Shown here in pieces: positions 999-49,858 of a DNA stretch of 64,000 nucleotides. Position 1 is the first letter of the stretch. Every line of letters starts with the position of its first letter. Position numbers and translations under genes: made by a program. Origin of the DNA: an uncultured Chloroflexia bacterium (lineage in GTDB: Bacteria > Chloroflexota > Dehalococcoidia > DSTF01 > WHTK01); the NCBI GenBank assembly GCA_963768705.1, contig CAVYJE010000028.1:90571-154570 (forward strand), given 5' to 3'. Under the pieces are notes generated by a model, which worked only from the letters and a program-made list of their open reading frames with translations, did not search any database and was not told where the DNA came from.

Positions 999-999
999 T

Positions 1000-1122: not shown

Positions 1123-1629
1123 ATGATTGCATCTTTCCTTCGCCGACTATCGCTGGCCCTCGTGACGGTGGGCTTCGGCCTCGCCGTGGCATGTGGCGGT
1201 GGCGATGACGCGGGCAACGAACAGACTGGCCAAAACACACCGCCGACACAGCAGGGCGCTGCCTCGACGATCGGCGCCGCCGGTAGTCAGCCTCCGGTTG
1301 GCTCCATAGCCTCCGAGGGCGAGGCGCGGGTTACGGCGGATGGCGTGGAGACGGTGCTCAGCATTGATGATTGTGTCATCCTCGATTCGGCCGTCGCTGT
1401 TACTGCCACGAGCGCGTCCGAGAACGCGAGTCTGAACGTGGTCGGTCTCCCGTCGAACGCCACCGCCGGCGTCGCTACGATCGGGTTCAGCCGCAGCGGC
1501 GATCAGTGGACAGCTGCCGGTGCGCTCATCGAGATCGCCGGATCGAGCATTCGCTTCTCGGGCACTGCGCTCAAGACGAGTGCATCACCGCCGGAGTCGC
1601 AGCTCCTGATCGAGGTTACCTGCCACTAG
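1123..1629 (+). CDS. hypothetical lipoprotein
   Basis: ATG start; N-terminal signal peptide with lipobox LAVAC-GGG; low-complexity Gly/Thr/Ser-rich body; no recognisable domain. Confidence 0.5.
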   Translation: MIASFLRRLSLALVTVGFGLAVACGGGDDAGNEQTGQNTPPTQQGAASTIGAAGSQPPVGSIASEGEARVTADGVETVLSIDDCVILDSAVAVTATSASENASLNVVGLPSNATAGVATIGFSRSGDQWTAAGALIEIAGSSIRFSGTALKTSASPPESQLLIEVTCH

Positions 1630-1958
1630 CGACCCTGAGAACATTCAGCCTTGGAGCCTATCGATGACCTCGGAGCGCTCTTCGAGCCTGCGAACGATGG
1701 CGTCTGGGACGATGTAGGGTCGTCCGAGCAACGTGGCAGCGGGCGGTGTGCCAGAATCGCATGCCTGCGCGCTGAGCACCGATAACGTTGAGCGCCAACG
1801 AACACGGCTTCGTCTGGTCGCACGTCGATGCACTTTGGGGCGGTCGCCTCGTTTCGCTGCTGGCACTGCCTGACTGCGCCGATAACTAAGACGATGGCAT
1901 CAATCGCGCGTACGGGCGAAAACGTCCAGGTCGTCTCCTTCGGTAAGGCATTCTTCAA
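1626..1958 (-). pseudogene. truncated or frameshifted HAD-family hydrolase remnant (paralogue of 2802..3479)
   Basis: Translation ..CIDVRPDEAVFVG.. and, in a second frame, ..DSGTPPAATLLGRPYIVPDAIVRRLEE.. parallels DAGVRAIWYNP..YPYIVPDAVIHGLDEL of the intact HAD. The DNA string gaacacggcttcgt is shared (1798-1811 and 2963-2976). No N-terminal DxD half is present. Confidence 0.45.
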
Positions 1959-2805
1959 CGTTATGGCGGCGCCGGCGCTATTCGTGCTGTTCGTGGGCCT
2001 GTTCGCGCTGCGCCCGTCGACACCGGCGCTACCCTACGTGGCGCTCGTGGGGGCCCTCGGCTTTTCGGCGTGGCGCTGGTTGCCTCGTACCGACTTCCGC
2101 ACGTTCGCTCTGTACATCCTGGCCTTCTCGCTGTTCAACGGCCTGCGTACCGTGGCGGACCAGACCGGCAATCCCGTGCACTTCGACTATCCAATCACGG
2201 TGGACAAGGTGCTGTTTCTTGGCGCCGTGCCGTCGGTCTGGCTCCAGGACCGCCTGTACGAGGCCGGCCGCATTTCGACGCTGGAATGGGGCTGTGTGAG
2301 CGTTTATGCGTCGTACTTCACCGGCCACTTCATCCTGGGTGCGATCATCTGGGCCAAGAAGCGCGAGTTACTGCCGGTCTATGCTTCCGTCGTCGCGCTG
2401 ACGCTTCTGATCGGGCTCGTGATTTACTTTCTGGTTCCGACGGCGCCGCCCTGGCTCGCCGCGAACACGGGCGATCTGCCCAACGTAGCACGCATCTTCG
2501 CGCTCGCGAACAGCGATGTGTGGGCCGATGCCTACGAGCGGGGCGCCTATGTGGCCGGCGCCAACGACGTCGGCGCCATGCCGTCGCTGCACACGGCGCT
2601 TACGACCGTGATCGCGATGGCCTGCTGGCGCATGAACAGGTTCCTGGGTGTTGCCGGCTGGCTGTATGTCGGCGCGATGGGGTTCTCGCTCATGTACCTG
2701 GGCGAGCACTACCTCACGGATGTCCTCGCGGGCATCGCCGTCGCCGCGCTGGCGTGGCGCTTCGTCACCTCACGCATGGACGTCGCAACCGAAGCTAACC
2801 CCTAG
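1828..2805 (+). CDS. PAP2-superfamily membrane phosphatase / inositol-phosphotransferase-like protein
   Basis: Multi-TM; PAP2 signature PSLH..(x)..GEHYLTDVLAGIAVA near C-terminus. The true start may be the internal MASIARTG (~1894), because the 5' end overlaps the HAD remnant on the opposite strand. Confidence 0.6.
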   Translation: MHFGAVASFRCWHCLTAPITKTMASIARTGENVQVVSFGKAFFNVMAAPALFVLFVGLFALRPSTPALPYVALVGALGFSAWRWLPRTDFRTFALYILAFSLFNGLRTVADQTGNPVHFDYPITVDKVLFLGAVPSVWLQDRLYEAGRISTLEWGCVSVYASYFTGHFILGAIIWAKKRELLPVYASVVALTLLIGLVIYFLVPTAPPWLAANTGDLPNVARIFALANSDVWADAYERGAYVAGANDVGAMPSLHTALTTVIAMACWRMNRFLGVAGWLYVGAMGFSLMYLGEHYLTDVLAGIAVAALAWRFVTSRMDVATEANP

Positions 2806-3479
2806 TCGCTCAGCTTCTCGATCAGGTCCGGTAGTTCGTCGAGACCGTGAATCACGGCGTCCGGCACGATGTAGGGGTAGTGCGAGCGGCGACGGCGCGG
2901 GTTATACCAGATGGCTCGCACGCCGGCGTCCAATGCGCAGATCACGTCGAGGTCCAGGTGGTCGCCGATGAACACGGCTTCGTGCGGTTGGAGGCCGAGA
3001 CGGTCTAGCGCGATGCGCAGGATCTGCGGGTCCGGCTTGTGCACGCCGGCCTCACCGCTGGGCAGGAACAGCTCGAAGTAGTCGTGCAGTCCCGTGTGAT
3101 CGAACTTATGGCGCTGCGTCTCGGCAGGTCCGTTCGTCACTACGCCGAGCCGGTATCGCGCGCTGAGCACGTCGAGTGCGGCTGTGCAGCCTGGCGATAT
3201 CGCCAGCAGGTCCTCGGCGCCCTGGAAGAACCAGAGCCCGACGCATTCTTGGCCCAGCTCGGTGGAGTGCAGGCCGAGCTCTCGGATGGCGCCGGGCATG
3301 CCCTTACTGTAGAAGCCGCCTTCGTCCAACTCGTTTATCACGTGCCAGAACGCGCCCCAGCTTACGGCGATGCCTTCCTCTCGCAGTCGCGTGTGAGCGC
3401 GGCGAGCCCGCTCCTGGCGCGACGCAGATACGTCGATCAGGGTGTCATCGAAGTCGAAGAGGACGGCTTTGAGGGTCAT
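2802..3479 (-). CDS. HAD-IA family hydrolase
   Basis: N-terminal motif I LFDFDDTL; ..VVTNGP.. ; motif IV FIGDHLDLDVICALDAGVRAIW. Confidence 0.8.
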   Translation of the reverse strand: MTLKAVLFDFDDTLIDVSASRQERARRAHTRLREEGIAVSWGAFWHVINELDEGGFYSKGMPGAIRELGLHSTELGQECVGLWFFQGAEDLLAISPGCTAALDVLSARYRLGVVTNGPAETQRHKFDHTGLHDYFELFLPSGEAGVHKPDPQILRIALDRLGLQPHEAVFIGDHLDLDVICALDAGVRAIWYNPRRRRSHYPYIVPDAVIHGLDELPDLIEKLSD

Positions 3480-3650
3480 GAAGGGTCAGAGTCCTGCCGT
3501 TCGGCTCGCGAGCGTCTGAGACGTAGGAGGATTGCCACGTCGGCTATCGCCTCCTCGCAACGACAGGATAGACGCCCACATTGAGGGACCCGAAGTGCGA
3601 CTCTGAATCCCATGCTCGACGGCGGCAGCCCTCTGCCGGCATGCAATGCC

Positions 3651-5303
3651 CTAGTGGTAGCCGCCGCGGAAGGTCGAGTAGTTCTTTTCCTTCGTGGTGA
3701 TGAACTCGAGCAGTGCGGGCTGGCCGTTCTGTGTGGCCTCGATGCCGCGCTTGATCGCCGGGACGATCTCGTCCGGGGAGGTGATGCGCTCGCCGTAGCC
3801 GCCGAGGGCCGTCGCGAAGTCGGCGTAGTTGCCGGAGATGTCGGTCGTGTTGAACTTCGCGTGGGAGGCCTTCATGACCGGGATCTCCATGGCCATGGAG
3901 AAGTTGTTGAACAGGATCGAGAGGATCGGGATGCGCTCGCGAACGGCGGTCTCGAAGTCCATGCCCGTCATGCCGATGGCCGCGTCGCCCCACATGTTGA
4001 TGCAGAGCTTGTCCGGCTGGGCGACCTTGGCGCCCATCGCCAGGCCGAGGCCGTAGCCGAGCTGCGTCGTCTTGCCCCAGCCGATGTAGCTCAGGGGCGC
4101 AGTCGTCTCCCAGAACGGCGATAGCTCGTCGCGCGGGCTGCCGGCGTCGTGCGTGATCACCGTGTTGGCGACGTCGACCGTGTGCAGGAGGTCCCAGATC
4201 ACCCGGTACGACTCTAGCGGCGCCTCGTTGTGGGTCAGGCGCGGCATCCACTCCTGCAGCCACGGCTCCTTCTGCGACTTGATCGTCGAGACGACCTCTT
4301 CGCGACGGCCGCGAGGCTTGCCGCCGAGCCGGTCGCTCACGGCTTCGACCAGCGCCGCCAGCGTGAGCTTCGAGTCGCCGACCAGGGCGTGCTCGGTGGG
4401 GATGTTCTTGTTGATGTCCATCGGGTCGACGGTGTTGTGGATGAAGGTCTTGCCCTCGGTGGGGAAACGGATGCCGAAGCCGGTGGCCGTGAAGCTGGCG
4501 CCGACGCCGAAGATCACGTCGGCGTCCTGTACGTGCCGGTATACCGACGCGGGCATCGCGACGCCGCCGGAGCCCAGGGAGAGCGGGTGGTTCTCCGGGA
4601 AGGAGCTCTTGCCCTCCAGGCTCGTCGTGACCGGCGCCTCCAGGAGCTCGGCGAGCTGCATGAGCTCGTCCCAGGCTTTGGCGTAGTGCACGCCCTGGCC
4701 GGAGTAGATCACGGGCCGCTCGGCGGCGATCAGGGCAGCCGCGGCCTCGTCAATGCTCTGGTCGTCCGGCGCGAACCTGGCGCGCGTCGTTGGCGTGTAG
4801 TTGATCTCGCCATCGACCTCTTCGTTCCAGATGTCGCCGGGGATTTCGAGCAGCACAGGGCCGGGGCGGCCGTTACGCGCCTGGGTGAACGCCCGGCGCA
4901 TCGAAGCGACGATGCCGGCCGGCGTCGTGACCTGCTCGGCCCACTTCGTCACGTGCTGGTAGTTCAGCGCGGCGTTGAACGCCGGCTTGACCCACGACTG
5001 GGCCCGGGCCGAGCCGCCGGGGATGGCGATCAGCGGCACCGCCTCCGAGTATGCCTGCGCGATGGCGCCGAAGGAGTTCTCGACGCCGGGACCGCCCTGC
5101 ATGCAGAAGATGCCGACGCTCTCACCGGAGCTGAGGCGGCTGCCCGCATCCGCCATGTGCACGCCGATGCGCTCCTGTCGCACGATGATCGGGCGTATAT
5201 CGGCCTCCGCAGCCGCCTCGATTAACGGGTTGAGGGGATAGGCGAAGATCTGCTTGACGCCCTCGCGCTTCAGGATTTCGGCGATGGCCTGGCTGACTCT
5301 CAT
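3651..5303 (-). CDS. thiamine-pyrophosphate-dependent enzyme (acetolactate-synthase-like family)
   Basis: 550 aa; N-terminal TPP-pyrimidine domain (..FAYPLNPLIEAA..GGPGVENSFGAIAQAY..); central domain; C-terminal TPP-binding GDAAIGMTGMDFETAVRERIPILSILFNN motif. Confidence 0.8.
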   Translation of the reverse strand: MRVSQAIAEILKREGVKQIFAYPLNPLIEAAAEADIRPIIVRQERIGVHMADAGSRLSSGESVGIFCMQGGPGVENSFGAIAQAYSEAVPLIAIPGGSARAQSWVKPAFNAALNYQHVTKWAEQVTTPAGIVASMRRAFTQARNGRPGPVLLEIPGDIWNEEVDGEINYTPTTRARFAPDDQSIDEAAAALIAAERPVIYSGQGVHYAKAWDELMQLAELLEAPVTTSLEGKSSFPENHPLSLGSGGVAMPASVYRHVQDADVIFGVGASFTATGFGIRFPTEGKTFIHNTVDPMDINKNIPTEHALVGDSKLTLAALVEAVSDRLGGKPRGRREEVVSTIKSQKEPWLQEWMPRLTHNEAPLESYRVIWDLLHTVDVANTVITHDAGSPRDELSPFWETTAPLSYIGWGKTTQLGYGLGLAMGAKVAQPDKLCINMWGDAAIGMTGMDFETAVRERIPILSILFNNFSMAMEIPVMKASHAKFNTTDISGNYADFATALGGYGERITSPDEIVPAIKRGIEATQNGQPALLEFITTKEKNYSTFRGGYH

Positions 5304-6000: not shown

Positions 6001-6281
6001 GAGAAGGCTCCTTGGCTAGCTAGGGAATTCGGGGCGCATCAAGCGTGCAGGGCGAATTCTAGATTGCCCTAAGAAATGTCACAATTTTTGTCTGAGGAGA
6101 AATCCAGAAGCGGGGGTGCTCCGTATATTAAGACGGAGCCACCTAATCAATGGTGGCCCCGTCCGGGGAGCGCCGCTCCACTGCTACTGGTCAGTGGAGG
6201 GCAATTTCATATTACACCTCTTGAACAAGCGTGAAAGACTTTCGGCGTAAAGAAAGCCTTAAAATCCGCTTGCCCATCTGG

Positions 6282-7066
6282 CTATCGCCATCTCACTACT
6301 GCCTTCTCGATCAGGCCTACGAGCACGAACAGCGCGAGCGATAACGCCGCGATGAGGAAGATCGCGGCCAGCACCATGTCCGTGCGGAACGAGTTGCGCA
6401 TCAGCAGCACGTAGTTCCCCAGCCCACCGGTCGACCCTGACCACTCCGCAAACACCGCGCCGACGATCGCGTAGGTGACGGCGATGCGCAGGCCCGTGAA
6501 CAGGTAGGGCAGGGCTTGGGGCACCTGGAGCAATCGCAGCGTCTTCCAGCGGTTGGCGCCGAGCGTGCGCATGAGCATCATCGCCTCCGTGTCCGCGATC
6601 GCCAGGCCCGACGCGAAGGCAACAGTGATCGGGAAGAACGTGTAGAGGGTGACGACGAGGATCTTGGGCAGGATGCCGAAGCCGAACCAGAGCACGAACA
6701 AGGGCGCGATCACGACCACGGGCAGGGTCTGAGAACCGACGAGCAGGGGATAAAGCCCGCGGCGCACCGGCGGCAGCGCGTCGATGAGCAGCGCCATGGC
6801 GACGCCGAAGGAGATGCTGACGGCGAGGCCGCTGAAGGTCTCCTGCAGGGTCTTGACGCTGTTCTCGGCCAGGATGTCCCGGTTGCGCCAACCCGCCTCA
6901 ATCACGCGCGAGGGCGCCGGTAGGGTGACGCGGGATATGCCAGACAACTCGACATAAAGCTCCCACGCACCGAACAGGGCGAGGATGATCAGGGCCGGCG
7001 GGACGACGTTGAACGCCGTCACGCTCATGCGCGATCCGAAGCCCGGCTGCGCGCTTTCGGGCGGGT

Positions 7067-7851: not shown

Positions 7852-8910
7852 CTAGCTGCCCGGCAGCAGGGCGTTGCTGAACAGCGGGCCGCCCGGCAGC
7901 TCGTCCTCAGACTCGAGCACCTTGTCCTTGTCGTCCACGACGATGCCTTGCTCGATGAAGTAGTGCGTGTAGGCCTTCCAGTCGTCGGCGTTCTGCACGC
8001 CCCAGGCGGTGCCGTCCGTGACGAGGTAGTCCTGCAGCGCCTCCGTCGAGCGCGTGACCAGCTCCGGCTCCGGGAAGGCATCCGGCAGGTAGTCCAGGAA
8101 GACCTGCGAGGCCTCGTCCGGGTGCTCGGCGGCGTACTGGTAGCCGCGGCGCGTGACTTCGAGGAACTTCGTCAGCTTGGCTGAGCCGGCGTTGACCACG
8201 TCGGAGCGCGCGATGAGCACGACGCCGGGGAAGTCCGGCACGCCGTAGTCGCTGTACTTGAATCCACGGACCTCGATGCCCCGCATGTCCGCCTCGATGC
8301 CCTCCCAGGTCATGAACATCTCCGTGAAGTCGGCCTGGCCGTTGTAAAGCGCCTCGTAGGCGAAGGTGTCCAGCGTGGCAACCTTGAAGTCGCCCGTGCC
8401 GCCGTCCGCCTGGATCACGGTCTTGATCTGAGGCTCCTCGTACGGCAGGCCGAAGCCCGCGTACGTCTTGCCGTCGAAGTCCTTCGGGCGCTGGATGTCG
8501 CTGTCGGCGAGCACGGTGAGCTCCGTTGGGTTGCTCTGGAGCACGGAGGCGATGCTCGTGAGCTCGAGGCCCGCCGCGCGCGAGAAGATCACGTTCGCCG
8601 GGAAGCTGACGCCCACGTCTGCCTGCCCGTTGGCGACGACGGTGTCCGGGTTTGTGTCGCCGTAGGGCAGGATCTTGAGGTCGATGCCGGCGTCCTCGTA
8701 CCAGCCGTTGGCCAGCGCCACGTAGATGCCGATGTGGTTGGTGTTGGGCGTCCAGTCCAGCTGGAGGCTGACGGTCTGCGGCGCATCGGCGCTGGGCTCC
8801 GCGCCGCTGCCGTCATCGTCGTCACCGCCACAGGCGGTGGCGAAAACCAGCGTGGCGGTGAGCACGACAAGAGCGATGCCGAATCGTCTTAACGTCTTCG
8901 AAGAGTGCAT
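7852..8910 (-). CDS. thiY: NMT1/THI5-like substrate-binding lipoprotein (ThiY-like HMP/thiamine-precursor binding protein)
   Basis: Lipoprotein signal MHSSKTLRRFGIALVVLTATLVFATAC; NMT1/THI5-like body. The ORF track starts at 8931, but the ATG at 8910 has a GGAGGAA RBS. A TPP riboswitch lies immediately upstream. Confidence 0.8.
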   Translation of the reverse strand: MHSSKTLRRFGIALVVLTATLVFATACGGDDDDGSGAEPSADAPQTVSLQLDWTPNTNHIGIYVALANGWYEDAGIDLKILPYGDTNPDTVVANGQADVGVSFPANVIFSRAAGLELTSIASVLQSNPTELTVLADSDIQRPKDFDGKTYAGFGLPYEEPQIKTVIQADGGTGDFKVATLDTFAYEALYNGQADFTEMFMTWEGIEADMRGIEVRGFKYSDYGVPDFPGVVLIARSDVVNAGSAKLTKFLEVTRRGYQYAAEHPDEASQVFLDYLPDAFPEPELVTRSTEALQDYLVTDGTAWGVQNADDWKAYTHYFIEQGIVVDDKDKVLESEDELPGGPLFSNALLPGS

Positions 8911-8984
8911 GGAGTTCCTCCGCGTACGCATCCCTGACGGGCGTGCCGGAGGAAATGGAGATCGCAGCTGGCCCCGCTGCTCAT

Positions 8985-9076
8985 CACCACGCGCTTTCCT
9001 CCGCCGGCATTACCCGGATCAGGTTCGACGGGTTTGATCTCAGGCCGTCCTCAGGTCCGAAGACGACCACCCCGTG
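8985..9076 (-). promoter_or_regulatory. TPP (THI-box) riboswitch
   Basis: Minus-strand RNA CACGGGGUGG..CCUGAGAUCAAACCCGUCGAACCUGAUCCGGGUAAUGCCGGCGGAGGAAAGCGCGUGGUG. It has the P1 CACG/CGUG stem, GGGGUG, CUGAGA, ACCC, GAACCUGAUC, GGGUAAUGCCGGCG and AGGAAAG, all in canonical order and spacing. Confidence 0.85.
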
Positions 9077-9094
9077 CGTAGCGGCCCCAGCATA

Positions 9095-10393
9095 TCACGC
9101 ATCGTCCTGCTGCCTGGAAGCCCGGTCCTTCGAGACGATGGCGCCGGTGATCAGCCGGGCGGCGCGGCCGTAGGTGACGTAGTTCCAGGCCCACTGCACG
9201 AGCACGAGGATGCGGTTCTCGAAACGTGCCAGCATCATGATGTGCACGAATAACCACGTCACCCAGCCAATGAAGCCGTGCAGCCTCAGCGGGCCCAGTA
9301 CGGCAATCGCGGCAGACCTGCCGATCGTCGCCATGGTGCCGCGGTCCTTGTAGCGGAAGGGCGTTGCCGTCTTGCCCGCCTGGCGCTCGATGATCATCTT
9401 GGCCACGTAAGCGCCCTGCTGCATCGCGACCGGCGCCAGGGGCGGTACCGGCTTGCCGTCTTGCTCAAGGAAGGCGAGATCGCCGATGACGAAGATTTCG
9501 GGACGCCCCGGTAGGGTGAGCTGCGGCGTGACTGGGATGCGCCCCGATGGCCCAAGCTCGCGCTCGGCGGCATCCGCCAGGGTCTTGCCGATGGAGGTGC
9601 CGACCACGCCGGCGGCCCAGATTACCGTGCGAGCCTCGATGCGTTGCGTGCCGTCGGGGGTCTGCACCGTGATGCCGGTCTCGTCCACGCCGGTGACGCG
9701 GGTGTGCGTACGAACCTCGGCGCCGAGGCGGTTCAGCGACTCTACCGCGTGGCCGGCCAACGACTCCGGATAGGCGTTGAGGATGCGGCTGTCAGCCTCA
9801 ACGAGGATGACCCGGGCGTCGGCGGCCTTGATGCGCCGGAAGTCGCCCGGCAGCGTCGTGCGTGCCAGCTCCGCAATCGCGCCGGACATCTCGACGCCTG
9901 TGGGGCCGCCGCCGACGACCACAAAGGTCTGCCAGGCCGCCACAGCGTCGGCGTCTCTTGCCATTTCGGCTTCCTCGAAGGCATGCAGGATACGACCCCG
10001 GATCTCTGTCGCGTCCTCGATGGTCTTGAGGGACGGCGCGACAGCGGCCCACTCGGGATGGCCGAAGTAGTTGTAGTGGGAGCCGGTGGCGACGACCAGG
10101 ACGTCGTAGTCGTGCGTCGATTCGACTGCCAGCACTTGCTTGTGCTCCAGGTCGAAGCCCGTGACTTCGTCCAGGACAACGCGCACGTTGCGCTGCGTGC
10201 GGACGACACCTCGCAGCGGCGCCGCGATGTTGGCGGGCGAGAGGCCACCGGTCGCGACCTGGTAGAGCAGGGGCTGGAAGAGGTGGAAGTTGCGCCGGTC
10301 AATCAGCGTGACCTCGATGTCACGGCCGGCGTCCTCCAGCCCCCGCACGGCAGACAGCCCGCCGAACCCACCGCCGATGACCACGACCTTCAT
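9095..10393 (-). CDS. ndh: type II NADH dehydrogenase (NDH-2), FAD/NAD(P)-binding oxidoreductase
   Basis: MKVVVIGGGFGGL first Rossmann motif; second VVVGGGPTGVE; C-terminal membrane-association helices. The start is placed at the internal ATG with a GGAAG RBS (the ORF track extends to 10447). Confidence 0.8.
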   Translation of the reverse strand: MKVVVIGGGFGGLSAVRGLEDAGRDIEVTLIDRRNFHLFQPLLYQVATGGLSPANIAAPLRGVVRTQRNVRVVLDEVTGFDLEHKQVLAVESTHDYDVLVVATGSHYNYFGHPEWAAVAPSLKTIEDATEIRGRILHAFEEAEMARDADAVAAWQTFVVVGGGPTGVEMSGAIAELARTTLPGDFRRIKAADARVILVEADSRILNAYPESLAGHAVESLNRLGAEVRTHTRVTGVDETGITVQTPDGTQRIEARTVIWAAGVVGTSIGKTLADAAERELGPSGRIPVTPQLTLPGRPEIFVIGDLAFLEQDGKPVPPLAPVAMQQGAYVAKMIIERQAGKTATPFRYKDRGTMATIGRSAAIAVLGPLRLHGFIGWVTWLFVHIMMLARFENRILVLVQWAWNYVTYGRAARLITGAIVSKDRASRQQDDA

Positions 10394-10510
10394 GCTTCCA
10401 TTTTCTCGTGCGGATGGCAGCAGGGCTACTGCCTTCGTATTGCACATACGTACAGGCCTGCGATTGCGTGGCTCCTCCTACGCGGGCATGACCAGTGCTA
10501 ACCTGCGCGC

Positions 10511-13648: not shown

Positions 13649-13736
13649 GGAGGGGTGGCAGAGCGGTTTAATGCGGCGGTCTTGAAAACCGCTGTGGGGC
13701 AACTCACCGGGGGTTCGAATCCCTCCCCCTCCGCCA
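13649..13736 (+). tRNA. tRNA-Ser (anticodon TGA)
   Basis: 88 nt. Acceptor stem GGAGGGG/CCCCTCC; anticodon loop CU-UGA-AA; long variable arm; T-loop GGTTCGAATCC; encoded CCA end. Confidence 0.85.
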
Positions 13737-27967: not shown

Positions 27968-28746
27968 GGCTCACTCCTCGAATGTCGCGTAAGTCTCTGA
28001 AAGTATACGTCAGACCAATGGCTGAGCGATCTACGGGGAGTGGAGAAGCGCCGCCAATCTCTCGCAAGTCCTCGATGACGTGGCTGGCGCCGGCCTGCCG
28101 CAGCACGTCGGCGTTCCCACCCGTGAGGCGTCCGATGCCGAGGATGCCGGCCTTGCGCGCAACCTCCATGTCGTAGACGCCGTCGCCGATGAAGACGCCA
28201 TGGTGTCTGCAGCTCCGAAGTCGGTCACGTCGAGGGCGTCCATGATCATCGCGAAGTGCCCCGGGCCTTTCGCGAGGCCCGCCACGTCTTCGTCTGAGCC
28301 CAGGGCGAGTCGAAACAGGTGGTCGATGCCGGTGACGCGCGTCTTGCGCTCGACGGAGCTCGGGATGCTGCCGCTGCTGACGACGAGCGTGTGGCCGTCG
28401 CGTCGCAAGTCCTCCAGCACATCGAGGACTTCGGGGAACAGATCCGGCACGTCTTCTTCCGCTCGCAGCCAGTAGCGCCGCGTCAGGTCATCGACCAGGG
28501 CTTCGTCCATGCGCTTCGAGCTGCTGGAGCACGGCCGCAAACTGGGCTTTGGGGCCCTTGCCCATGAGGCGCGTGTAGATCGGGCGGGCGACTTCGTCCG
28601 GAATGCCGCACTCCAGCTGCAAGCATCTCGCAGAACAGGTCGGCCGCCGGGCCCATCGAATCGACGAGCGTGCCGTCGAGGTCGAAGATCAGGATGCGCT
28701 GGGCGACGCCATCAGGCTTCCTCTGCGATGGCGGTCGCAGCTTCAT
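27939..28746 (-). pseudogene. HAD-family hydrolase (phosphoglycolate-phosphatase-like), frameshifted; ends uncertain
   Basis: ILIFDLDGTLVDS (motif I) at ~28690; ..DGHTLVVSSGS.. middle frame; ..KAGILGIGRLTGGNADVLRQAGASHVIEDLREI.. C-terminal frame. At least two frame changes; the 3' end may lie near 28000 rather than 27939. Confidence 0.5.
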
Positions 28747-29525
28747 CCGCAGCGACGATTCGCGGCGGCAACGTGCGCACGCTCTCGACGAAGCGGGCGG
28801 TGCGCACGTCGCGCTCCATAACGTACCTTACATAATCACCAAGGCAGGTCTGCAGCTCCAAGGCCAGCTCGCCGGAGAGCCGAACGCGCGATGCGTCCTC
28901 GAAGCTGCCGCGCTCGATCAGCCGCAGCATCTTCAGGGCGTTGAGGCTCAGCGGGGCGAGTCGTAGCGAATCGTCGGTGCAGTTGGGGCAGATGGCGCCG
29001 CCGACGGAGACGCTCCAGTAGTTCATCTGAGGCTGCAACGGCTGAGTCGCAGACAGCGCAGGCGGAGAGGGCAGGCCGATAGCCGAGCTGGTCCATCAGG
29101 CGCAGCTCAAAGCGGCGGACGGCCAGCTCGTAGCCGGGTGAGGTGCCGAGGTAGCCCAGAGTCTCGTGCAGGAGCCGGAAGATCGGGTTGCCCTCGGAGC
29201 GCTCCGGCGTCAGGCGGTCGACGAGCTCGGCGCAGTAGAGGCCGCGGCTGAGTCGTTCGAGGTCCTCGCGCAGGCCGGGGAAGGCGTCGACCGTCTCCGC
29301 CTGGGTGACGATATCGAGCTCTCGGCCCTCGGCGAGGAGGTAGGAGCCCAGCGTCAGCGGCTCCAGATGCCCGGCGAGCTTGCTCTTGGTGCGCCGGACG
29401 CCCTTGGCGACGGCATCGACGCGGCCGCCGTGCGAGGTGTAGAGCGTGACGATCTTGTCGGCCTCGCCCAGCTTGCGCTGTCGCAGGACGATCGCCTGGG
29501 TCTTGTAAACGCGGGGTTTCGGCAC
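28712..29525 (-). pseudogene. recO: DNA repair protein RecO, one frameshift near 29040
   Basis: N-terminal OB-fold MPKPRVYKTQAIVLRQRKLGEADKIVTLYT..; zinc-finger C-terminal part ..CPNCTDDSLRLAPLSLNALKMLRLIE.. in a second frame. Confidence 0.75.
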
Positions 29526-29680
29526 GGCTCGCTCTTAGAGAGAGCGTAACAGAAGACCGGAAGGCGAAGGGGTGCTATCGTTTGCGTGGTTGCAAGCCGA
29601 CAATGCTCGGCCGTGAAGCAGGAAACCTGCTTCACCTATCAATTTCATTGCAATCTGTGTAACCCCCTCTTAAACGTTAC

Positions 29681-29718
29681 GTAACAACCCCGAAACAATC
29701 CTGTTACCGGCGTGAAAC
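29681..29718 (+). promoter_or_regulatory. GlnR-box-like operator: GTAAC-n6-GAAAC-n6-GTTAC-n6-GAAAC
   Basis: cGTAACaaccccGAAACaatcctGTTACcggcgtGAAACat, matching the actinobacterial GlnR a1-b1-a2-b2 consensus gTnAc-n6-GaAAc-n6-GtnAC-n6-GAAAC; lies in an AT-rich intergenic region 20-60 bp upstream of the regulator ORF. Confidence 0.5.
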
Positions 29719-29740
29719 ATCGCATACCTAGTCTCCGCAT

Positions 29741-30148
29741 GTGAGCAACTTGGTGGCGATGGGTGATGACATGACGTTCCACGAGGAGAGCAGCGATTCC
29801 GGCTCGGGAGAGCTGCAGTTAGGCAACGTCAAGGTCGATCTCGCGACATTCAAAGTAACCGTGGGCGTAAAGCCCGCAAACCTCACGTATCAGGAGTTCG
29901 AGTTGCTGCGCTACTTGGCGGACTTTCGTGATCGCGTCGTCTCGTTCGACGTGCTCAGCGGTCTGCTGTGGGGTTCTACGGGGCCAAAGGAAACCAGACG
30001 ACTTAACGTCCTCGTCTGCAGGCTCAGGTCCAAGTTACGCAACTCTTTCCCCTACCGGCTGGAGACCGTACGAGGCAGGGGGTACGGCCTTCTCGGAGGC
30101 GCCGGTGGTGGTGAGCCTGCACAGGGACGTGAAGGGGGCGCTTCTTGA
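29741..30148 (+). CDS. OmpR/PhoB-type winged-helix DNA-binding protein lacking a receiver domain (GlnR-like output domain only)
   Basis: ..LTYQEFELLRYLADFRDRVVSFDVLSGLLWGSTGPKETRRLNVLVCRLRSKLRNSFPYRLETVRGRGYGL.. = trans_reg_C fold; GTG start (the ATG alternatives at 29759 and 29771 are in frame); no upstream coding sequence for a receiver. Confidence 0.6.
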   Translation: MSNLVAMGDDMTFHEESSDSGSGELQLGNVKVDLATFKVTVGVKPANLTYQEFELLRYLADFRDRVVSFDVLSGLLWGSTGPKETRRLNVLVCRLRSKLRNSFPYRLETVRGRGYGLLGGAGGGEPAQGREGGAS

Positions 30149-30197: not shown

Positions 30198-31638
30198 ATG
30201 CTAGAGAAAATTCTGCGATTCCGAAGGCCTCTCACCGTCTTGTCGGGAGCGGCCCTCGCGCTCGCGTTCATCGCCTCGGCGCACGCCCAGTCGGCTGAAG
30301 ACAACGCCGCGAGCATTGAGGACCTGGCAAGCGCCCTTGACCAGGCCTGGCTGATGATCGCGGCCTTCCTGGTGTTCTTCATGCAGGCCGGCTTCGCCAT
30401 GGTCGAGGCCGGGCTTCGTGCGTTCGAAGAACGTCGTCAACATTCTCATGAAGAACATCCTGGACGGGTGTGTTGGCGCAATTTCCTTCTGGGCCGTCGG
30501 TTGGGCGTTTGCCTATGGGTCTGACGGTGCCTTCATCGGCCACAGCCAGTTCTTCCTGCACGGCTTCAGCGACTACGCAAGCTGGATCTTCCAGTTCGCC
30601 TTCGCCGCAACGGCCGCGACGATCGTTTCCGGCGCCATGGCGGAGCGCACGAAGTTCCAGGCGTACCTGTTCTACAGCGTGTTCATCTCGGCCATCATCT
30701 ACCCGGTCGTCGTGCACTGGGCCTGGGGCTGCCGGCTGGCTCACCGCCTTCACGGACGACCCGATTGGCACGAACGGCTACCTGGACTTCGCCGGTTCCG
30801 GTGTCGTCCACATGGTCGGTGGCTTCGCCGGCCTCATGGGTGCGATCATCGTTGGCCCTCGCCTGGGCAAGTTCAGCAAGGGCGGCGGCGTCAACCCGAT
30901 TCCCGGCCACAACATCTCCATCGCCGTTCTCGGTATGTTCATCCTGTGGTTCGGCTGGTACGGCTTCAACCCCGGTTCCACGCTTGGCCTGAGCGGTGGC
31001 CTTGCGGCGCTGGCAGCCAAGGTTGCGGTCAACACGACGCTTGCGGCCGGTGCTGGTACCGTCGCCATGACGATCTCTGGCCGAAGTTGCGCACGGGCAA
31101 GTACGACATGGGCCTCGCGATCAACGGCGCCCTCGGCGGCCTCGTCGGCATCACGGCGCCCTGTGCTTCTGTCGACCCATGGGCCGCCGTAGTCATCGGC
31201 GTAATTGCAGCCATCGTCGTAATGTTCGGTGTCGAGTTCCTCGACAAGATCGGCATCGACGACCCGGTTGGCGCCGTGTCGGTGCACGGCTTTGCAGGCC
31301 TCTGGGGCGTCCTTTCGGTAGGTCTCTTCGCGACCCAGCAGGGTGTCCTCGACCACACCGGCGTCGAGTCCGACGTCTACGGTCTGTTCCTGGGCGGTGG
31401 CGTCGAGCAGCTCGGTATCCAGGCGCTGGGTGCTGCAGCGATCATCGTGTGGACGTGTCTTACCTCGGGCATACTCTTCCTGGTGATCAAGTACACCATC
31501 GGTCTCCGAGTCTCGGAGGAAGAAGAGCTGCGCGGTCTGGACGTGGACGAGCACGGCGTCGAGGGCTACCCGTACTTCGAGCGAGTGCCTGAGTCTGGCA
31601 TGATGTTCGTTGGCGATGGCCAGGGCGGCGGAGCGTAG
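30198..31638 (+). pseudogene. amt: ammonium transporter Amt, about 3 frameshifts (near 30415, 30735, 31080)
   Basis: Signal peptide MLEKILRFRRPLTVLSGAALALAFIASAHA; Amt segments ..WLMIAAFLVFFMQAGFAMVEAG / ..[31 protein letters not shown].. / ..[55 protein letters not shown].. / ..[35 protein letters not shown].. in alternating frames. Confidence 0.8.
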
Positions 31639-31680: not shown

Positions 31681-32019
31681 ATGAAAAAGATTGAAGCAAT
31701 CATCAGGCCAGAGAAGCTGAATATCGTGCATGAAGCGCTGAAGGAGCTGGGCTACCCCGGCATGACGATCAGCGAGGTCAAGGGCCACGGTGTTCAGAAG
31801 GGCATCGTCCAGCAATGGCGAGGTCGCCAGTACGCGGTCGAGTTTCTTCCGAAAGTGAAGATGGAGATCGTGGTGCCGGATGCTGCGGTGGCCCAACTTC
31901 TCCAGGTAATCAAGGAGAACGCCGAGACGGGCTCCATCGGTGACGGCAAGGCTTTCGTAATGCCGGTTGACGATGCCATGCGGCTGAGGACCGGCGAATC
32001 CGGGGACGCAGCGCTCTAG
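31681..32019 (+). CDS. glnK: nitrogen regulatory protein P-II
   Basis: MKKIEAIIRPEKLNIVHEALKELGYPGMTISEVKGHG.QKG....RG..Y.VEFLPKVKMEIVV; 112 aa; immediately downstream of amt. Confidence 0.9.
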   Translation: MKKIEAIIRPEKLNIVHEALKELGYPGMTISEVKGHGVQKGIVQQWRGRQYAVEFLPKVKMEIVVPDAAVAQLLQVIKENAETGSIGDGKAFVMPVDDAMRLRTGESGDAAL

Positions 32020-40345: not shown

Positions 40346-42789
40346 ATGGATGAGCACGCCCTTCGGGTCCTCGAGTACGACAAGGTGCTGGCGCGCCTTG
40401 CTGCCCTGACGTCGTTCTCGGGCGGGCGGGAGCTGGCGCTGGCGCTGAAGCCGTCGCCGGACTACGACGAGGTGCTGGAGCGGCAGCACGTGCTCGCGGA
40501 GGCGATCCGGCTGCGGGCGGCCCGGCTGCCGCTGAACCTGAACAGCGCGCTCGACGTGCGGGCAGGGGCTGGAGAAGGCGAGCATCGGCGGCGCGCTGGA
40601 TGGGCAGGAGCTTCTGGCGGTGGCGGCGACGCAACGGGCGGCGCACCAGGCGCGGGCCGTGCTTACGCGGGTCGCGACGCAGTTCCCGCGCCTCGGCGGG
40701 CTGGGCGAGGACCTGATCGAGCACGAGGCGGTGGTCTCGGAGATCGGTGGGGCACTGGACCAGCGCGGCGAGGTGGTCGATGGCGCGTCGCCGGCGCTGA
40801 CGATGCTGCGGCGCAACATCAAGGTGTCGCACGACCGTCTGCAGGCGAAGCTGCAGGAGTTCCTTGGGTCCGCGGCGGGTCGGCTGGCGGCGCAGGAGTC
40901 GCTCGTGACGCTGCGAGACGGTCGCTACGTGATCCCGGTGAAGGCCGACTTCCGGGGCGAGGTGCGCGGCATCGTGCACGACGTCTCGTCCAGCGGCGCC
41001 ACGGTATTCATCGAGCCGCTGGCGGTCGTGGAGCTGGGGAACCAGTGGCGCGAGTACCAGATCGAGGAGCGCCGGGAGGTCGAGCGCATCCTGCGGCGGC
41101 TCAGCGAGGTCGTGGGCGCCGTCGCGGGCGACATCGTGGCCGAACGTGGGGCTGCTGGCGCAGCTCGACCTGGCGATGTCGGCGGCGCGGCTGGCGGAGG
41201 AGCTCTCGCCAGCGGGGATGACGGTGCTGCCGGGAACTGAAGAGCCCCTCCCCCAACCCCCTCCCCGCTGGCGGAGAGGGGGCATGATGCCGCGGCGCCG
41301 GAGACGTGGCTGCAGCGATCGCCGGGGGTGCTGGAGCTGCGTGAGGCGCGTCACCCGCTGCTGACGACGCCGGTGCCGATCTCGTTGCGCATGGGCGGCG
41401 ACGACCGCGTGCTGCTGATCACGGGGCCGAACACGGGCGGCAAGACGGTGGCGCTGAAGACGGTGGGGCTGCTTTGCCTGATGGCGCAGTCGGGGCTGCC
41501 GGTGCCGGCGGAGCCGGGGAGCACGCTGCCGGTGCTGGAAGAGGTGCTGGCGGACATCGGCGACGAGCAGAGCATCGAGCAGTCGCTGTCGACGTTCAGC
41601 GGGCATCTGCGCAACGTGATCTCGCTGCTGGAGCGCGCGGGGCCGAAGTCGCTGGTGCTGCTGGACGAGCTGGCGGCGGGCACTGACCCGGCCGAGGGCG
41701 CCGCGCTGGCCCGGGCGTTGCTGCAGGACCTGCTGGGCAAGGGCGCCCTGACGATGGCGACGACGCACCACGGCGAGCTGAAGCTGTTCGCGCACTCGAC
41801 GCCGGGCGTGGTCAACGCGGCGGTCGAGTTCGACTCGGTGACGCTTTCGCCGACGTATCACATCGTCATGGGCGTGCCGGGGCGCAGCAATGCGTTGGCG
41901 ATCGCGGCGCGCCTGGGCCTGCCGGAGTCGATCCTGCGGACGGCGCAGGAGTCGTTGGCGCCGGAAGAGGCGGCGATGGAGTCGCTGCTGACGGAGCTAC
42001 ACCAGGAGCGTGAGGCTGCTCTGCAGGCGCGCCAGGGCGAGCAAGAGGCACGCCGCCGGGCCGAGGACGCCCGCCGCAACATCGAGCAGCGCCTGGCGGG
42101 CATCGACGAGGAGCGGGCACGGCGGCTGGACGAAGCTGCGCTGGCACTCGAAGCCGAAGTAGAAGCCGCACGCGCCGGCCTGCAGCGAGCGCACCGCATG
42201 GCGGAGCGACGTCTGGTCGCCGAGGTGACGCCCGAGGAAGCCGCGGAGGCACGCGAGGCGATCGGCCAGGCTTCCGACACGGCGAAGCGGCATCCGCAAG
42301 CGCTCGCGCCGCCGGCGTCGCAGCGGGCTGCAACCGGAGCAGATCGTGCCCGGGGCAGAGGTGTGGATCCAGGGCGTGCCGATGGCGGCCGAGGTGCTGA
42401 CGAAGCCCGACGCGCGGGGAGAACTTGACGTAACGTTCGGGGGCCTGCGGGCACGGGTCGGCGTCGGTCAGGTTGTGCGCGTGCAGGCGGCGACACCGAA
42501 GCCGGCGGAGCGCACCGTGATCCCGCGGGCGCCGGCGTACGCTGCTCAGGAGATCGAGGTGCGCGGCCAGACCCTGGACGAGGCGCTGCCGCTGATCGAC
42601 AAGTTCCTCGATGACGGGTTCCGGGCCGGTGTGCCGCGGTTGCGCGTCGTGCACGGTAAGGGCACAGGGAAGATGCGCAACGCCGTGCGCCAGATGCTGA
42701 CGAAGCACCCGCTGGTCAAGGGCTTCGAGTTCGCCGAGCCCAGAGAGGGCGGCGAGGGCGTGACCGTCGTCGATATGGCGCTGGGGTAA
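40346..42789 (+). pseudogene. mutS2: endonuclease MutS2 (Smr-domain), about 4 frameshifts
   Basis: MDEHALRVLEYDKVLARLA.. ; ..RDGRYVIPVKADFRGEVRGIVHDVSSSGATVFIEP.. ; Walker A ITGPNTGGKTVALKTVGL ; ..SLVLLDELAAGTDPAEG.. ; coiled-coil ; C-terminal Smr ..LRVVHGKGTGKMRNAVRQML.. spread over three frames. Confidence 0.75.
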
Positions 42790-45339: not shown

Positions 45340-45445
45340 AGACTGACGCAAACTTAACCGAACTGTCTCCCAGTCGCGTTGACCGAAGGGTTGCTGACGC
45401 CGAGTATCTAATGACTGCTCGGCGTTCAATTTGATTCGAGGTGTC

Positions 45446-47158
45446 ATGGCGTCAGAGACTCGCGTTGCCTATCTCTCCATGGAGATTGGCCTAAGAACTG
45501 AGATGCCGACCTACAGCGGTGGCCTTGGCGTCCTCTCCGGCGACACTTTGCGGGCAGCGGCCGACTTGGGCGTACCCGTCGTTGCCGTAACCCTGCTCTA
45601 TCGCCAGGGCTTCTTCCGTCAGCATCTGGCCGCGGATGGCCATCAGTCTGAGGACCAGCCTGTCTGGGACCCGGAGCGCTTCCTGGAACCCTGCCCGCAA
45701 CGGGCCAAGGTGATGGTGGAGGGCCGTGAGGTCGTGCTGCGTGCATGGCTCTACCGCCTGCAGGGCGTGCACGGCGACGAGGTGCCGATCTACATGCTGG
45801 ACGCGGACCTGCCGGAGAACGCGCCGGAAGACGCCGCGCTCACCGGTCAGCTTTACGGCGGCGATCAGCGCTACAGGCTGCGCCAGGAAGCTGTGCTGGG
45901 CATCGGCGGCGTGGCGATGCTGCGCGCCCTGGGCTACAAGGACATCGAGACGTATCACATGAACGAGGGCCACAGCGCCCTCCTGACGCTGGCGCTGCTC
46001 TACGAAGAGGAGCCCGGCCGCGCGTCAGGTTGGACCGACCCGGCGATGATCGCAACGGTGCGCAGCAAGTGCGTGTTTACGACGCACACGCCGGTGCCCG
46101 CCGGCCACGACCGTTTCCCCATCGGCCTCGTCACTGAGGTACTCGGGGATGAGATCGCAGAGACGATCCACCAGCTGCCGTGCGTCGAAGGCCACGTGCT
46201 CAACATGACGTACCTGGGGCTGTTCTTCTCGCGTTACGTGAACGGTGTGGCGCAGCTGCACGGCCAGGTGGCGCAGGGCCTGTACCCGGACTACAAGATC
46301 CACTCGATTACGAATGGCGTGCACGCCCGGACGTGGACGTCCAATCAGATGGCGAAGCTGTTCGATGAATACATCGAGGGCTGGAATGCCGACTCGCATA
46401 TGCTTCGCCGTGCCCTGACGATCCCGGTGCATGAGATCATCTCGACCCACCGCAAGGCGAAAGGGGCGTTGCTGGACGAGGTGTTCAAGCGCACGGGCAC
46501 GATGCTGGACCCTTCCGTGATGACGATCGGCTTCGCGCGGCGGGCTGCGACGTACAAGCGCGCCGACCTCGTGTTCGGGAACATCGAGAACCTGAAGCGC
46601 ATTGCCCACGAGGCAGGGCGTATCCAGTTCGTCTACGCCGGCAAGGCCCATCCGCACGACGAGCCCGCGAAGGACATCATCCGTCGCGTCTACCAGGCTC
46701 GTGACGCGCTGCAGGGCGAGATACCAGTGGTTTACCTGGAAGAGCACGACATGACGCTGGGGAAGCTTCTGTGCTCCGGTGTCGACCTGTGGCTGAACAA
46801 CCCGCAGCGGCCGATGGAGGCCTCGGGCACGAGCGGTATGAAGGCGGCGCTGAACGGGGTGCCTTCGCTGAGCGTGCTGGACGGCTGGTGGCCGGAGGGC
46901 TGGATCGAGGGCGTGACGGGCTGGAACATCGGGGACGGCGTTGCCGACATCGATGACCCTGAGGTCGAACGGGCCTGGCTGCACAACAAGCTCAACTACG
47001 TCATCGTGCCGATGTTCTATGGCTCGCCGGAGTCATACGGCCGGGTGATGCGCTCGACGATTGCGATTAACGGCTCCTACTTCACGGCCCAGCGCATGCT
47101 GCAGCAGTACGTGACGGATGCCTACAGGCTCAGCGAGGAAGTCGCGGTGCACGCCTGA
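45446..47158 (+). CDS. alpha-glucan phosphorylase (GT35, GlgP-like archaeal-type)
   Basis: ..AYLSMEIGL..YSGGLGVLSGD.. N-terminus; ..EASGTSGMKAALNG.. PLP-lysine region; 570 aa; ATG 45446 with GAGGTG RBS (the track's TTG at 45431). Confidence 0.8.
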   Translation: MASETRVAYLSMEIGLRTEMPTYSGGLGVLSGDTLRAAADLGVPVVAVTLLYRQGFFRQHLAADGHQSEDQPVWDPERFLEPCPQRAKVMVEGREVVLRAWLYRLQGVHGDEVPIYMLDADLPENAPEDAALTGQLYGGDQRYRLRQEAVLGIGGVAMLRALGYKDIETYHMNEGHSALLTLALLYEEEPGRASGWTDPAMIATVRSKCVFTTHTPVPAGHDRFPIGLVTEVLGDEIAETIHQLPCVEGHVLNMTYLGLFFSRYVNGVAQLHGQVAQGLYPDYKIHSITNGVHARTWTSNQMAKLFDEYIEGWNADSHMLRRALTIPVHEIISTHRKAKGALLDEVFKRTGTMLDPSVMTIGFARRAATYKRADLVFGNIENLKRIAHEAGRIQFVYAGKAHPHDEPAKDIIRRVYQARDALQGEIPVVYLEEHDMTLGKLLCSGVDLWLNNPQRPMEASGTSGMKAALNGVPSLSVLDGWWPEGWIEGVTGWNIGDGVADIDDPEVERAWLHNKLNYVIVPMFYGSPESYGRVMRSTIAINGSYFTAQRMLQQYVTDAYRLSEEVAVHA

Positions 47159-48519: not shown

Positions 48520-49858
48520 CTACGCCCGGAGCTTTTCCTGCAGGGTGCCGAGGAGCTCCTCGATGCGGACGCGGGTCTGCTGCATGGAGTCTCGTTCGCG
48601 GATGGTGACGGCGTTGTCGTCCAGGGTGTCGAAGTCGATGGTGACGCAGAGGGGCGTGCCGATCTCGTCCTGGCGGCGGTAGCGGCGGCCGATGGACTGG
48701 GCGTCGTCGAACTGGGTCATGAAGTGGGGTCGCAGGAGCTTGTGCACCTCGCGGGAGATCGGGCCCAGCTTCTCGTTGCGGGAGAGGGGCAGCACGGCGA
48801 CCTTGATCGGCGCCACGCTGGGGTGGAGGCGGAGGTAGACGCGCTTCTCGGTCTTGCCGTCCGCCGTCGGAGCTTCTTCCTCGCGATAGGCGTCGTAGAG
48901 CAGCACGAGGAAGGTGCGGTCGACGCCGACCGCGGGCTCGATGACGTAGGGGGTGATGTGCTCGTTCGACTCCTCATCGAAGTAGGTGAGGGCTTTGCCT
49001 GAGACCCTGGAGTGGGCCGAGAGGTCGAAGTCGGTGCGGTTGGCGATGCCTTCGAGCTCGGACCAGCCGAGGGCGGCGTAGTGGTACTCGATATCGTAGG
49101 TGCCCTTTGAGTAGTGCGAGAGCTCATCCTGGCTGTGCTCTCGCAGGCGCAGGTTCTCGTCGCGCACGCCGAGGCGCTTGAACCAGGCCATACGCTCCTG
49201 GATCCAGTGCTGGTGCCACTCTTCGTCCGTGCCGGGCTTGCAGAAGAACTCCATCTCCATCTGCTCGAACTCGCGCAGGCGAAAGATGAAGTTGCCCGGC
49301 GTGATCTCGTTGCGGAAGGAGCGGCCTTGCTGGGCGATGCCGAAGGGCAGCTTGCGACGCATCGACGTGAGCACGTTCTCGAAGTTCGTGAACATGGCCT
49401 GAGCGGTCTCGGGGCGCAGATAGACCTGGTGCGGCGGACTCCTCGACGGGACCGACGTGGGTCCTGAACATGAGGTTGAAGGGCCGCGCTTCCGTGAGCT
49501 GGCCCTTGACGCCGCAGTCCGGGCAGACGTCCGACTCCAGGTGGTCGGCGCGGAAGCGGTGCTTGCAGTTACGGCAGTCGACCATCGGGTCGGTGAAGGT
49601 GGCGACGTGGCCGCTGGCCTCCCAGACCTTCGGGTTCATGATGATCGAAGCATCGATACCGACGACGTCGTCACGCTCCTGGACCACGGCGGACCACCAG
49701 AGGTTCTTGATGTTGCGCTTCATCTCGACACCAAGCGGTCCGTAGTCCCAGAAGCCCCCGATGCCGCCGTAGATCTCGCTGCTGGGGAACACGAAGCCGC
49801 GTCGCTTGCACAGGGAGACCAGGGTCTCGAACTGCAGCTCGGGGTTGGTGTCAGACAT
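48520..49858 (-). pseudogene. glyQS: glycine--tRNA ligase (dimeric GlyQS type), one frameshift near 49400-49440
   Basis: [56 protein letters not shown].. then ..[47 protein letters not shown].. in a second frame. Confidence 0.8.

Follow-up and report, generated by a model that had tools for sequence, protein, structure and literature searches.

A GlnR-like Array of Phased Half-Sites Upstream of a Receiver-less OmpR-Type Regulator Gene and amt-glnK in a Chloroflexota Genome

Organization of the Locus and the Regulator Family

The DNA considered here, hereafter the window, is a stretch of 64,000 nucleotides from an uncultured Chloroflexia bacterium (contig CAVYJE010000028.1), in which the spacer between recO and a small, divergently transcribed regulator gene contains at positions 29681-29718 an array of phased 5-bp half-sites resembling the GlnR box of Actinomycetota. 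The regulator gene encodes a winged-helix protein of the OmpR/PhoB type and is followed on the same strand by amt and glnK, coding for an ammonium transporter and a P-II protein, respectively (Table 1). An earlier note on this DNA had recognized a receiver-less OmpR-type regulator followed by amt and glnK, and this description is borne out by the Pfam matches and by the predicted fold of the regulator.

The regulator matches Trans_reg_C (PF00486) with 58.3 bits against a Pfam cut-off of 26.2, and Pfam and NCBIfam assign to it only this generic domain. The AlphaFold2 (AF2) model (31 homologues) has a winged-helix fold at residues 24-119 with predicted local distance difference test (pLDDT) values above 90, residues 1-22 and 122-135 being disordered, and its succession of secondary structure elements, E-E-E-E-H-E-H-H-E-E, is that of the OmpR/PhoB-type winged helix, with a four-stranded sheet at the N-terminus, three helices, and a hairpin at the C-terminus; in Foldseek comparisons the target-normalised TM-score is 0.8-0.88 with the DNA-binding domains of PhoB, GlnR, and PhoP. 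Only 215 bp separate the gene from the divergent recO, which starts at 29525 and runs leftwards, so there is no space for a receiver domain; in addition, an in-frame TAG stop codon lies 9 nt ahead of the start codon and therefore the open reading frame (ORF) cannot begin further upstream. The N-terminus MSNL is kept among homologues.

The database searches returned 90 relatives of the regulator, 87 of which, with E < 1e-17, are proteins of 81-150 aa that carry Trans_reg_C only, while the nearest receiver-containing relatives appear at E ~1e-5 only. An exhaustive profile search gave 39 cluster representatives below 1e-30, and most of the top 150 matches are 100-150 aa long; matches clearly of response-regulator size (220-270 aa) set in at ~1e-27 to 1e-22, and the family itself ranges from 1e-30 to 1e-54. 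In a species-level genome collection all 18 true relatives belong to metagenome-assembled genomes (MAGs) labelled Chloroflexia or Dehalococcoidia, several of which are long-read soil assemblies. The recognition helix, RRLNVLVCRLR, is unusual for the superfamily and is accompanied by the hairpin ETVRGRGYG; many members also carry a conserved, disordered C-terminal tail, EPxQGRxGGAS, which could speculatively be regarded as a candidate motif for docking a partner, for example GlnK. The operons of loci L008, L011, and L165 have glnK and the L165 regulator (P0082) is visibly without the GGAS tail in the alignment; the tail does not track cleanly with glnK, therefore the idea stays speculative.

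Some MAGs encode two paralogous receiver-less regulators with similar boxes and their own amt (L003 and L006, L004 and L018, L002 and L007). The first type of paralogue is leaderless, beside recO, and accompanied by glnK; the second has a Shine-Dalgarno leader and an exchanger gene. Cross-regulation between the paralogues is possible.

The linkage of the regulator with amt is a recurrent trait: among the 18 genome loci, 11 have amt directly 3' of the regulator gene and one has it 5', and glnK comes next in L001, L002, L003, L008, and L011. The order regulator-amt(-glnK) is kept down to 42% protein identity and across differing genomic neighbourhoods; in particular, at that identity P0082 is followed by Ammonium_transp and P-II genes in an unrelated neighbourhood, as in the syntenic loci. 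Homologues on long contigs show only the synteny metG-tatD-polyprenyl synthase-recO divergent from regulator-amt-glnK, or lone regulators. Regulators standing alone are found in L161, L166, L007, L010, and L013-L015, and the boxes are retained in L161, L166, and L013-L015, where no amt adjoins the regulator. In the syntenic relative L161, a 240-kb contig, recO is still accompanied by the regulator with its boxes (10001-10435), and amt and glnK are absent.

The Phased-Repeat Element

The element reads GTAAC-aacccc-GAAAC-aatcct-GTTAC-cggcgt-GAAAC. The earlier note had described this sequence as a GlnR operator in architecture and in half-sites; the sequence is exactly as stated and is an exact match to the definition gTnAc-n6-GaAAc-n6-gTnAc-n6-GaAAc (PMC10235972). 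The same note had placed it in an AT-rich intergenic region and stated that no ORF explains it; the G+C content of the spacer is 0.50-0.52 versus 0.64-0.72 in the flanks, and none of the window ORFs of at least 60 aa runs over the site.

The rarity of the pattern was evaluated by shuffling. The dimer GTNAC-N6-GAAAC occurs twice in the window on both strands, versus 0.18 expected, and both matches are at the element, adjacent and in phase; the full 38-bp pattern of four half-sites has one exact match versus 0.01 expected, and the element is also the only locus of the window with at least three of four phased half-sites, shuffled windows averaging 0.13. A copy of the 38-bp pattern with three mismatches, lying 22 bp further upstream, exposes two weaker phased units. 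One is a distal GTAAC, which precedes the proximal box by 55 bp, or 5 x 11, and whose column -55 is G in 26 of 49 aligned promoters; the other is a CTTAAAC element, the columns of which (-43 to -39) hold 0.6-1.2 bits in the same alignment.

Table 1. Features of the regulator-amt-glnK locus in the window, and exchanger and peptide genes of related loci. Half-site positions relative to transcription assume a predicted start at ~29741; columns refer to the 49-promoter alignment.
Feature	Position	Strand	Remarks
Distal half-site GTAAC	29659..29663	+	~-82 to -78; weakly conserved
CTTAAAC element with half-site-like TAAAC (29671-29675)	29669..29675	+	CTTAAA invariant in the close clade
Half-site a1, GTAAC	29681..29685	+	~-60 to -56; columns -33 to -29; invariant in 9/9 close relatives
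Half-site b1, GAAAC	29692..29696	+	~-49 to -45; columns -22 to -18
Half-site a2, GTTAC	29703..29707	+	~-38 to -34, place of a -35 element; columns -11 to -7
Half-site b2, GAAAC	29714..29718	+	~-27 to -23, between the -35 and -10 positions
-10-like hexamer TAGTCT (family consensus ccTAGnCTc)	29729..29734	+	T, A, and T at +15, +16, and +20, each in 48/49
Regulator gene (135 aa, OmpR/PhoB-type winged helix, without receiver)	29741..30148	+	GTG start; Trans_reg_C sole Pfam domain
amt, ammonium transporter gene	30198..31638	+	Pfam Ammonium_transp and TIGR00836; 49 nt after regulator stop, behind GGAGG
glnK (P-II) gene	31681..32019	+	P-II E = 5.5e-32, PRK10858 E = 2.2e-36; 42 nt after amt; Tyr51 present
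PF00999 exchanger regions	L004 6927-8210; L005 6180-7611; L017 7647-8959; L101 2550-3826; L121 4378 onward		
Hydrophobic peptide ORF	L005 ~6262-6345; L094; L095; L096 ~3400; L101 ~2390-2300	- (L101)	

The search of the remaining window for other GlnR-like boxes, weaker dimers, or promoters made of a single box and a -10 gave no credible site; a weak dimer at 36837 was rejected as it overlaps the start of recQ. This absence is uninformative because the rest of the window holds housekeeping genes only (recQ, dnaX, recR, der, cdaA-ybbR, comEC, gpsA, and others). Other known elements were discarded as descriptions of the site: the Bacillus-type GlnR/TnrA palindrome (TGTNA-N7-TNACA) and the PHO-box unit (GTTCACC) do not fit the sequence, and an RNA element finds no Rfam match. 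At 29676-29685 an out-of-phase GTTAC adjoins a1 and makes with it a 10-bp palindrome, GTTACGTAAC, which is not kept in relatives, where CGCCC-GTAAC is found instead.

Promoter Context and Start of the Transcript

The gap between the last GAAAC (b2) and the hexamer TAGTCT is exactly 10 nt, and the TAG of this hexamer is the in-frame stop mentioned above. No canonical two-hexamer sigma-70 promoter was detected in the spacer; in fact, the -35 position is filled by ACCGGC and no hexamer resembles a -35 element. The box thus laid out, with positions predicted from the -10 and the start codon, covers ~-60 to -23 of the amt promoter, b2 being 3' of a -35 that is absent.

The GTG start codon is only 6 nt past TAGTCT, therefore the regulator mRNA is probably leaderless, with a predicted start that coincides with the GTG or is no more than 1-2 nt away from it. 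The same arrangement, TAnnnT followed after 5-8 nt by a start codon, is found in 12 close relatives, and within the close clade TAGnCT, 6-7 nt, and ATG or GTG point to a leaderless mRNA; more distant family members have a 20-40-nt leader with GGAGG.

Further upstream, at 29614-29636, the window contains an inverted repeat with perfectly matching 10-bp arms, GTGAAGCAGG-aaa-CCTGCTTCAC, centred ~90 bp upstream of b2 and with an RNA fold z of -2.65. An inverted repeat stands at an equal distance (86-90 bp) in L001, L003, L084, L085, L088, and L163, where the arms differ around a core GAA..TTC. The repeat may serve as another operator or as part of the divergent recO promoter.

Conservation Across Orthologous Promoters

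A footprint was obtained from 49 non-redundant upstream regions of homologous regulators, for which the promoter-proximal box was the sole anchor of the alignment. The information content rises with an 11-bp period, at columns -11, -22, -33, and -44, with the weaker peaks at -33/-29 and -43/-39, and the spacers contain ~0.1-0.3 bits. The columns of a2, which were not used as alignment anchor, are G at -11 in 46 of 49 promoters and A at -8 in 48; those of b1 are G at -22 and A at -20 (42 of 49 each) and A at -19 (45 of 49). TAnnnT begins at +15 in 48 of the 49 promoters, so the gap of 10 nt between box and -10 is essentially fixed, and no -35-like hexamer is present across the family. When 9 close relatives are compared, invariance is confined to the columns of the half-sites, CTTAAA, and CCTAGnCTC.

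These data bear on the possibility that the adjacent regulator is a repressor, which would block RNA polymerase at the -35/spacer region under nitrogen sufficiency and repress its own gene. The proximal sites overlap -38 to -23, the protein is devoid of the receiver domains that are GlnR's route to RNA polymerase, and actinobacterial GlnR is also known as a repressor of some targets (PMC4140684). However, promoters of a family that has no -35-like hexamer should be weak unaided, and a fixed 10-nt gap with helical phasing is typical of promoters activated by PhoB or GlnR and needless for a repressor; repression is thus considered unlikely.

Recurrence at Other Genes

The specificity of the arrangement was assessed against a control of 705 kb of unrelated high-GC loci from the same searches, including the actinobacterial loci L019-L080. 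In 329 kb of family loci there are 56 clusters that contain at least three of four half-sites in phase, and 54 of these share the strand of the regulator, versus 2 clusters in the control. For the composite promoter, a proximal box had to be followed after 9-10 nt by TAnnnT and joined by two or more additional half-sites in phase; family sequence (488 kb) yields 59 such promoters versus 0 in the control.

With these numbers, a chance resemblance in a low-GC spacer, devoid of any regulatory role, is effectively refuted and retains a negligible probability: the half-sites, at 5 bp, are short, but the shuffle statistics, the conservation over 49 promoters, and the contrast with the control all oppose it. 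The contrast also concerns the identity of the binder, since the boxes might be recognized by a regulator from another locus, for example a full-length response regulator of the OmpR family or of GlnR type, the small protein being a co-regulated target or a competitor that consists of a DNA-binding domain alone. Cross-binding is made plausible by the paralogue pairs that share a MAG and have similar boxes; however, the composite promoter is found only beside family regulators, the boxes are kept even at lone regulators, and the nearest receiver-containing proteins are distant in both searches described above, which makes this explanation quite improbable.

In relatives the composite promoter is also found ahead of a separately transcribed amt (L011 at 5377, L012/L106/L107 at 5354, and L006 at 2630) and of a gene downstream of amt that encodes a Na+/H+-exchanger-type (CPA-type) protein of PF00999, an unexpected member for a nitrogen regulon. 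It is directly ahead of the exchanger gene in L004, L017, and L121, and in L004 at 6927 it consists of four perfect half-sites, 10 nt, and TAGCAT. In L005 the composite promoter precedes a small peptide ORF that is itself just upstream of the exchanger gene, and in L101 (+2550) phased repeats are found before the exchanger gene and no -10 is evident at the expected distance. The peptide ORF is conserved and hydrophobic (~27-30 aa, M/L-E-F/L-I-A-A/G-G-A-F...VVLP...) and has its own composite promoter in L005/L094/L095, L096, and L101; no similar ORF was found in the window.

A further target is indicated by L093, in which an operon of NIR_SIR (ferredoxin nitrite/sulfite reductase-like), MFS, and Oxidored_molyb genes (399-3827) lies directly upstream of the family regulator. 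Its promoter (~285-366) reads GACAC-TTCAC-GTAAC-GTAAG-..-GTAAC, 10 nt, TAGTCT; this array is degenerate, with one clean half-site among -11/-22/-33, and was spotted by eye, outside the 59 hits of the scan. It suggests that nitrate/nitrite assimilation is part of the regulon in the L093 organism. Signatures of glutamine synthetase, glutamate synthase, urease, and glutamate dehydrogenase were found neither in the window nor in any family locus searched.

The earlier note had made its proposal depend on recurrence of the motif at other nitrogen genes. In relatives the box does recur at other genes, namely amt, the nirA-like/MFS operon, and the exchanger, and the proposal therefore survives in related genomes.

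Comparison with GlnR, PhoB, and NnaR

Actinobacterial GlnR is an orphan response regulator of the OmpR/PhoB family whose boxes are found at the amtB-glnK-glnD promoter. The GlnR element is composed of a1 (gTnAc), b1 (GaAAC), a2, and b2 with 6-nt gaps, and in the complex that Mycobacterium tuberculosis GlnR forms with RNA polymerase on a fragment of the amtB promoter (-64 to +13), a1-b1-a2-b2 is occupied head-to-tail by four protomers, the one on b2 being 3' of the -35 and touching the beta flap and sigma region 4, while the receiver domains bridge to RNA polymerase (PMC10235972). The element of the window shares with this system the half-site consensus, the 6-nt gaps, the amt-glnK target, and the location of b2 3' of the -35 position; moreover, its six phased positions parallel the third GlnR box of the Streptomyces amtB promoter (PMC5826061). 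The differences concern the regulator, which has no receiver domain and is here the first gene of the amt operon, apparently autoregulated, and the phylum, since the relatives are Chloroflexota MAGs and not Actinomycetota.

At the protein level, the family profile retrieves GlnR first among PDB entries (8HML at 1.7e-19, then 8HIG and 8HIH), followed by RegX3 (2.1e-17) and MtrA (2.5e-16). In Foldseek, PhoB, GlnR, and SaeR rank together and the top structural match is the PhoB effector domain 1GXP; identity to the GlnR DNA-binding domain from Saccharopolyspora erythraea amounts to 37% over 75 aa, which puts GlnR no nearer than RegX3 or MtrA. When residues are mapped on this protein, by subtracting 100 from the S. 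erythraea GlnR numbers to obtain those of the window, R86, V90, and R94 fall on R186, V190, and R194, which contact bases, and R65, V66, Y50, and V110 to residues that make contacts between adjacent DNA-binding domains. The loci L019-L080 were discarded as a test of GlnR orthology, as they are mostly generic OmpR-family regulators caught by short peptide patterns; L023, with 83% identity to S. erythraea GlnR, is the only true GlnR among them.

The reading of the regulator as GlnR-like in the earlier note is thus supported in part: GlnR gives the best PDB sequence matches, but the receiver is missing and RegX3, MtrA, and PhoB are about as close. The further proposal of the note, that nitrogen control in this genome would be under such a protein rather than NtrC or NtcA, is a hypothesis. 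The system appears from its sequence to work like the GlnR/amtB promoter; the protein cannot be classed as a GlnR, because it lacks the receiver that defines that family and its orthology is no more than putative.

The pho box of Escherichia coli, a class II activator site, is a second term of comparison: its direct repeats have an 11-bp periodicity, like those described here, and stand in for the -35, the -10 following after 10 bp. PhoB differs in its TGTCA-type half-site, in the phosphate signal, in activation through phosphorylation of the receiver, and in the number of repeats, typically two per box versus four to six here.

NnaR of Streptomyces, a co-regulator of nitrate/nitrite assimilation, is also a receiver-less OmpR-type winged-helix protein, and the regulator has an NCBIfam match to the C-terminal region of PRK07239; this NnaR-type match is weak (E = 2.9e-5 versus 9e-14 for MtrA). 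In contrast to the small protein of the window, NnaR has a large N-terminal uroporphyrinogen-III-synthase-like (HemD-like) domain and is not linked to amt.

Proposed Mechanism

The element is best interpreted, with a probability of about 0.6, as the operator of an activator-dependent promoter of the regulator-amt-glnK operon, bound by the product of the adjacent regulator gene. What is observed is the architecture of the sequence, with its conservation, its link to the regulator family, and its recurrence at other promoters; the identity of the binder, activation, the transcription start, and the nitrogen signal are all things that we infer from sequence. The four strong G(T/A)(A/T)AC repeats spaced by 11 bp (~-60 to -23), together with the two weaker ones upstream, would stand in for the -35, and several copies of the 135-aa protein would bind them head-to-tail, which is conceivable in the absence of a receiver because the GlnR DNA-binding domain by itself binds tandem sites in the crystal. 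The most promoter-proximal copy, located between the -35 and -10 positions, would contact RNA polymerase at sigma region 4 and the beta flap as GlnR and PhoB do, the DNA-binding domain of the latter contacting sigma region 4 (3T72, cited in PMC10235972). The bound array would in this way switch on a promoter having only a -10, and the output would be a leaderless regulator-amt-glnK transcript; autoregulation, which would be positive, follows from the regulator being the first gene of the operon.

Several points weigh against this operator-activator interpretation. GlnR bridges to the polymerase by its receivers, which are absent here, so activation would need another route, and sites lying over the -35/spacer region can also repress. 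The recognition helix differs from that of GlnR (RRLNVLVCRLR versus TRTVDVHVRRLR), with Cys, Phe, or His at position 93, which is Arg (R193) in GlnR, and the recognition residues that do agree are also present in PhoB and other members, therefore they are no proof of specificity for GTAAC. Half-sites similar to G(T/A)AAC are common in the OmpR family. Finally, amt is frameshifted and the operon may not be intact here, unless the frameshifts are assembly errors: compared with the intact 482-aa orthologue of L001, the frame is broken by three indels (+1, -2, and +2) at 30414, ~30729, and ~31079. The neighbouring recO (28712-29525) is likewise split across two frames. The window frameshifts are probably long-read assembly errors, pseudogenes being the alternative. 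Other genes of the window look truncated, namely MutS_V (41328-42428), a phosphorylase (45431-47158), and a class II tRNA synthetase (48520-49395), and the related European Nucleotide Archive (ENA) contig L162 has the same gene fragmentation.

A broader proposal, tentative and in its full form doubtful, is that soil Chloroflexota, namely the MAG lineages labelled Dehalococcoidia, respond to nitrogen limitation by means of OmpR-type activators reduced to the DNA-binding domain, which on GlnR-like boxes would form tetramers or hexamers in head-to-tail order and would read nitrogen through a partner, for example GlnK on the EPxQGRxGGAS tail, and not through phosphorylation. Such proteins, if the proposal is true, would be functional analogues of actinobacterial GlnR, either of independent origin or derived by reduction of a fuller ancestor, and would provide a minimal model of OmpR/PhoB-type activation.

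Nitrogen regulation in Chloroflexota is, to our knowledge, uncharacterised, and the searched literature contains no description of GlnR-type regulation in Chloroflexi/Chloroflexota, only incidental co-mentions. A promoter of the GlnR-box/amtB type that is served by a receiver-less OmpR-type regulator in another phylum would therefore be new, and this promoter design would not be limited to Actinomycetota. The locus provides candidate first targets (amt, glnK, the nirA-like operon, the CPA-type exchanger, and the small membrane peptide) together with a family of regulators, a defined operator, and the architecture of a promoter; it also raises the question whether four to six tandem sites can be filled, and RNA polymerase activated, by an OmpR/PhoB DNA-binding domain on its own.

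Other Observations

Among the matches of the family profile, P0093, P0094, P0098, and P0100 are very long proteins in which OmpR-type winged-helix domains are repeated in tandem 5-12 times; P0100 has 6 copies, and P0093 has 7 copies behind an N-terminus that resembles a receiver. These tandem proteins are unrelated to the regulator-amt-glnK locus. Elsewhere in the window, an ordinary thiamine pyrophosphate (TPP) riboswitch (8979-9084, minus strand, 63 bits) is located upstream of an NMT1/THI5-like gene (7852-8931, minus strand), and an ordinary tRNA gene lies at 13649-13733 on the plus strand.

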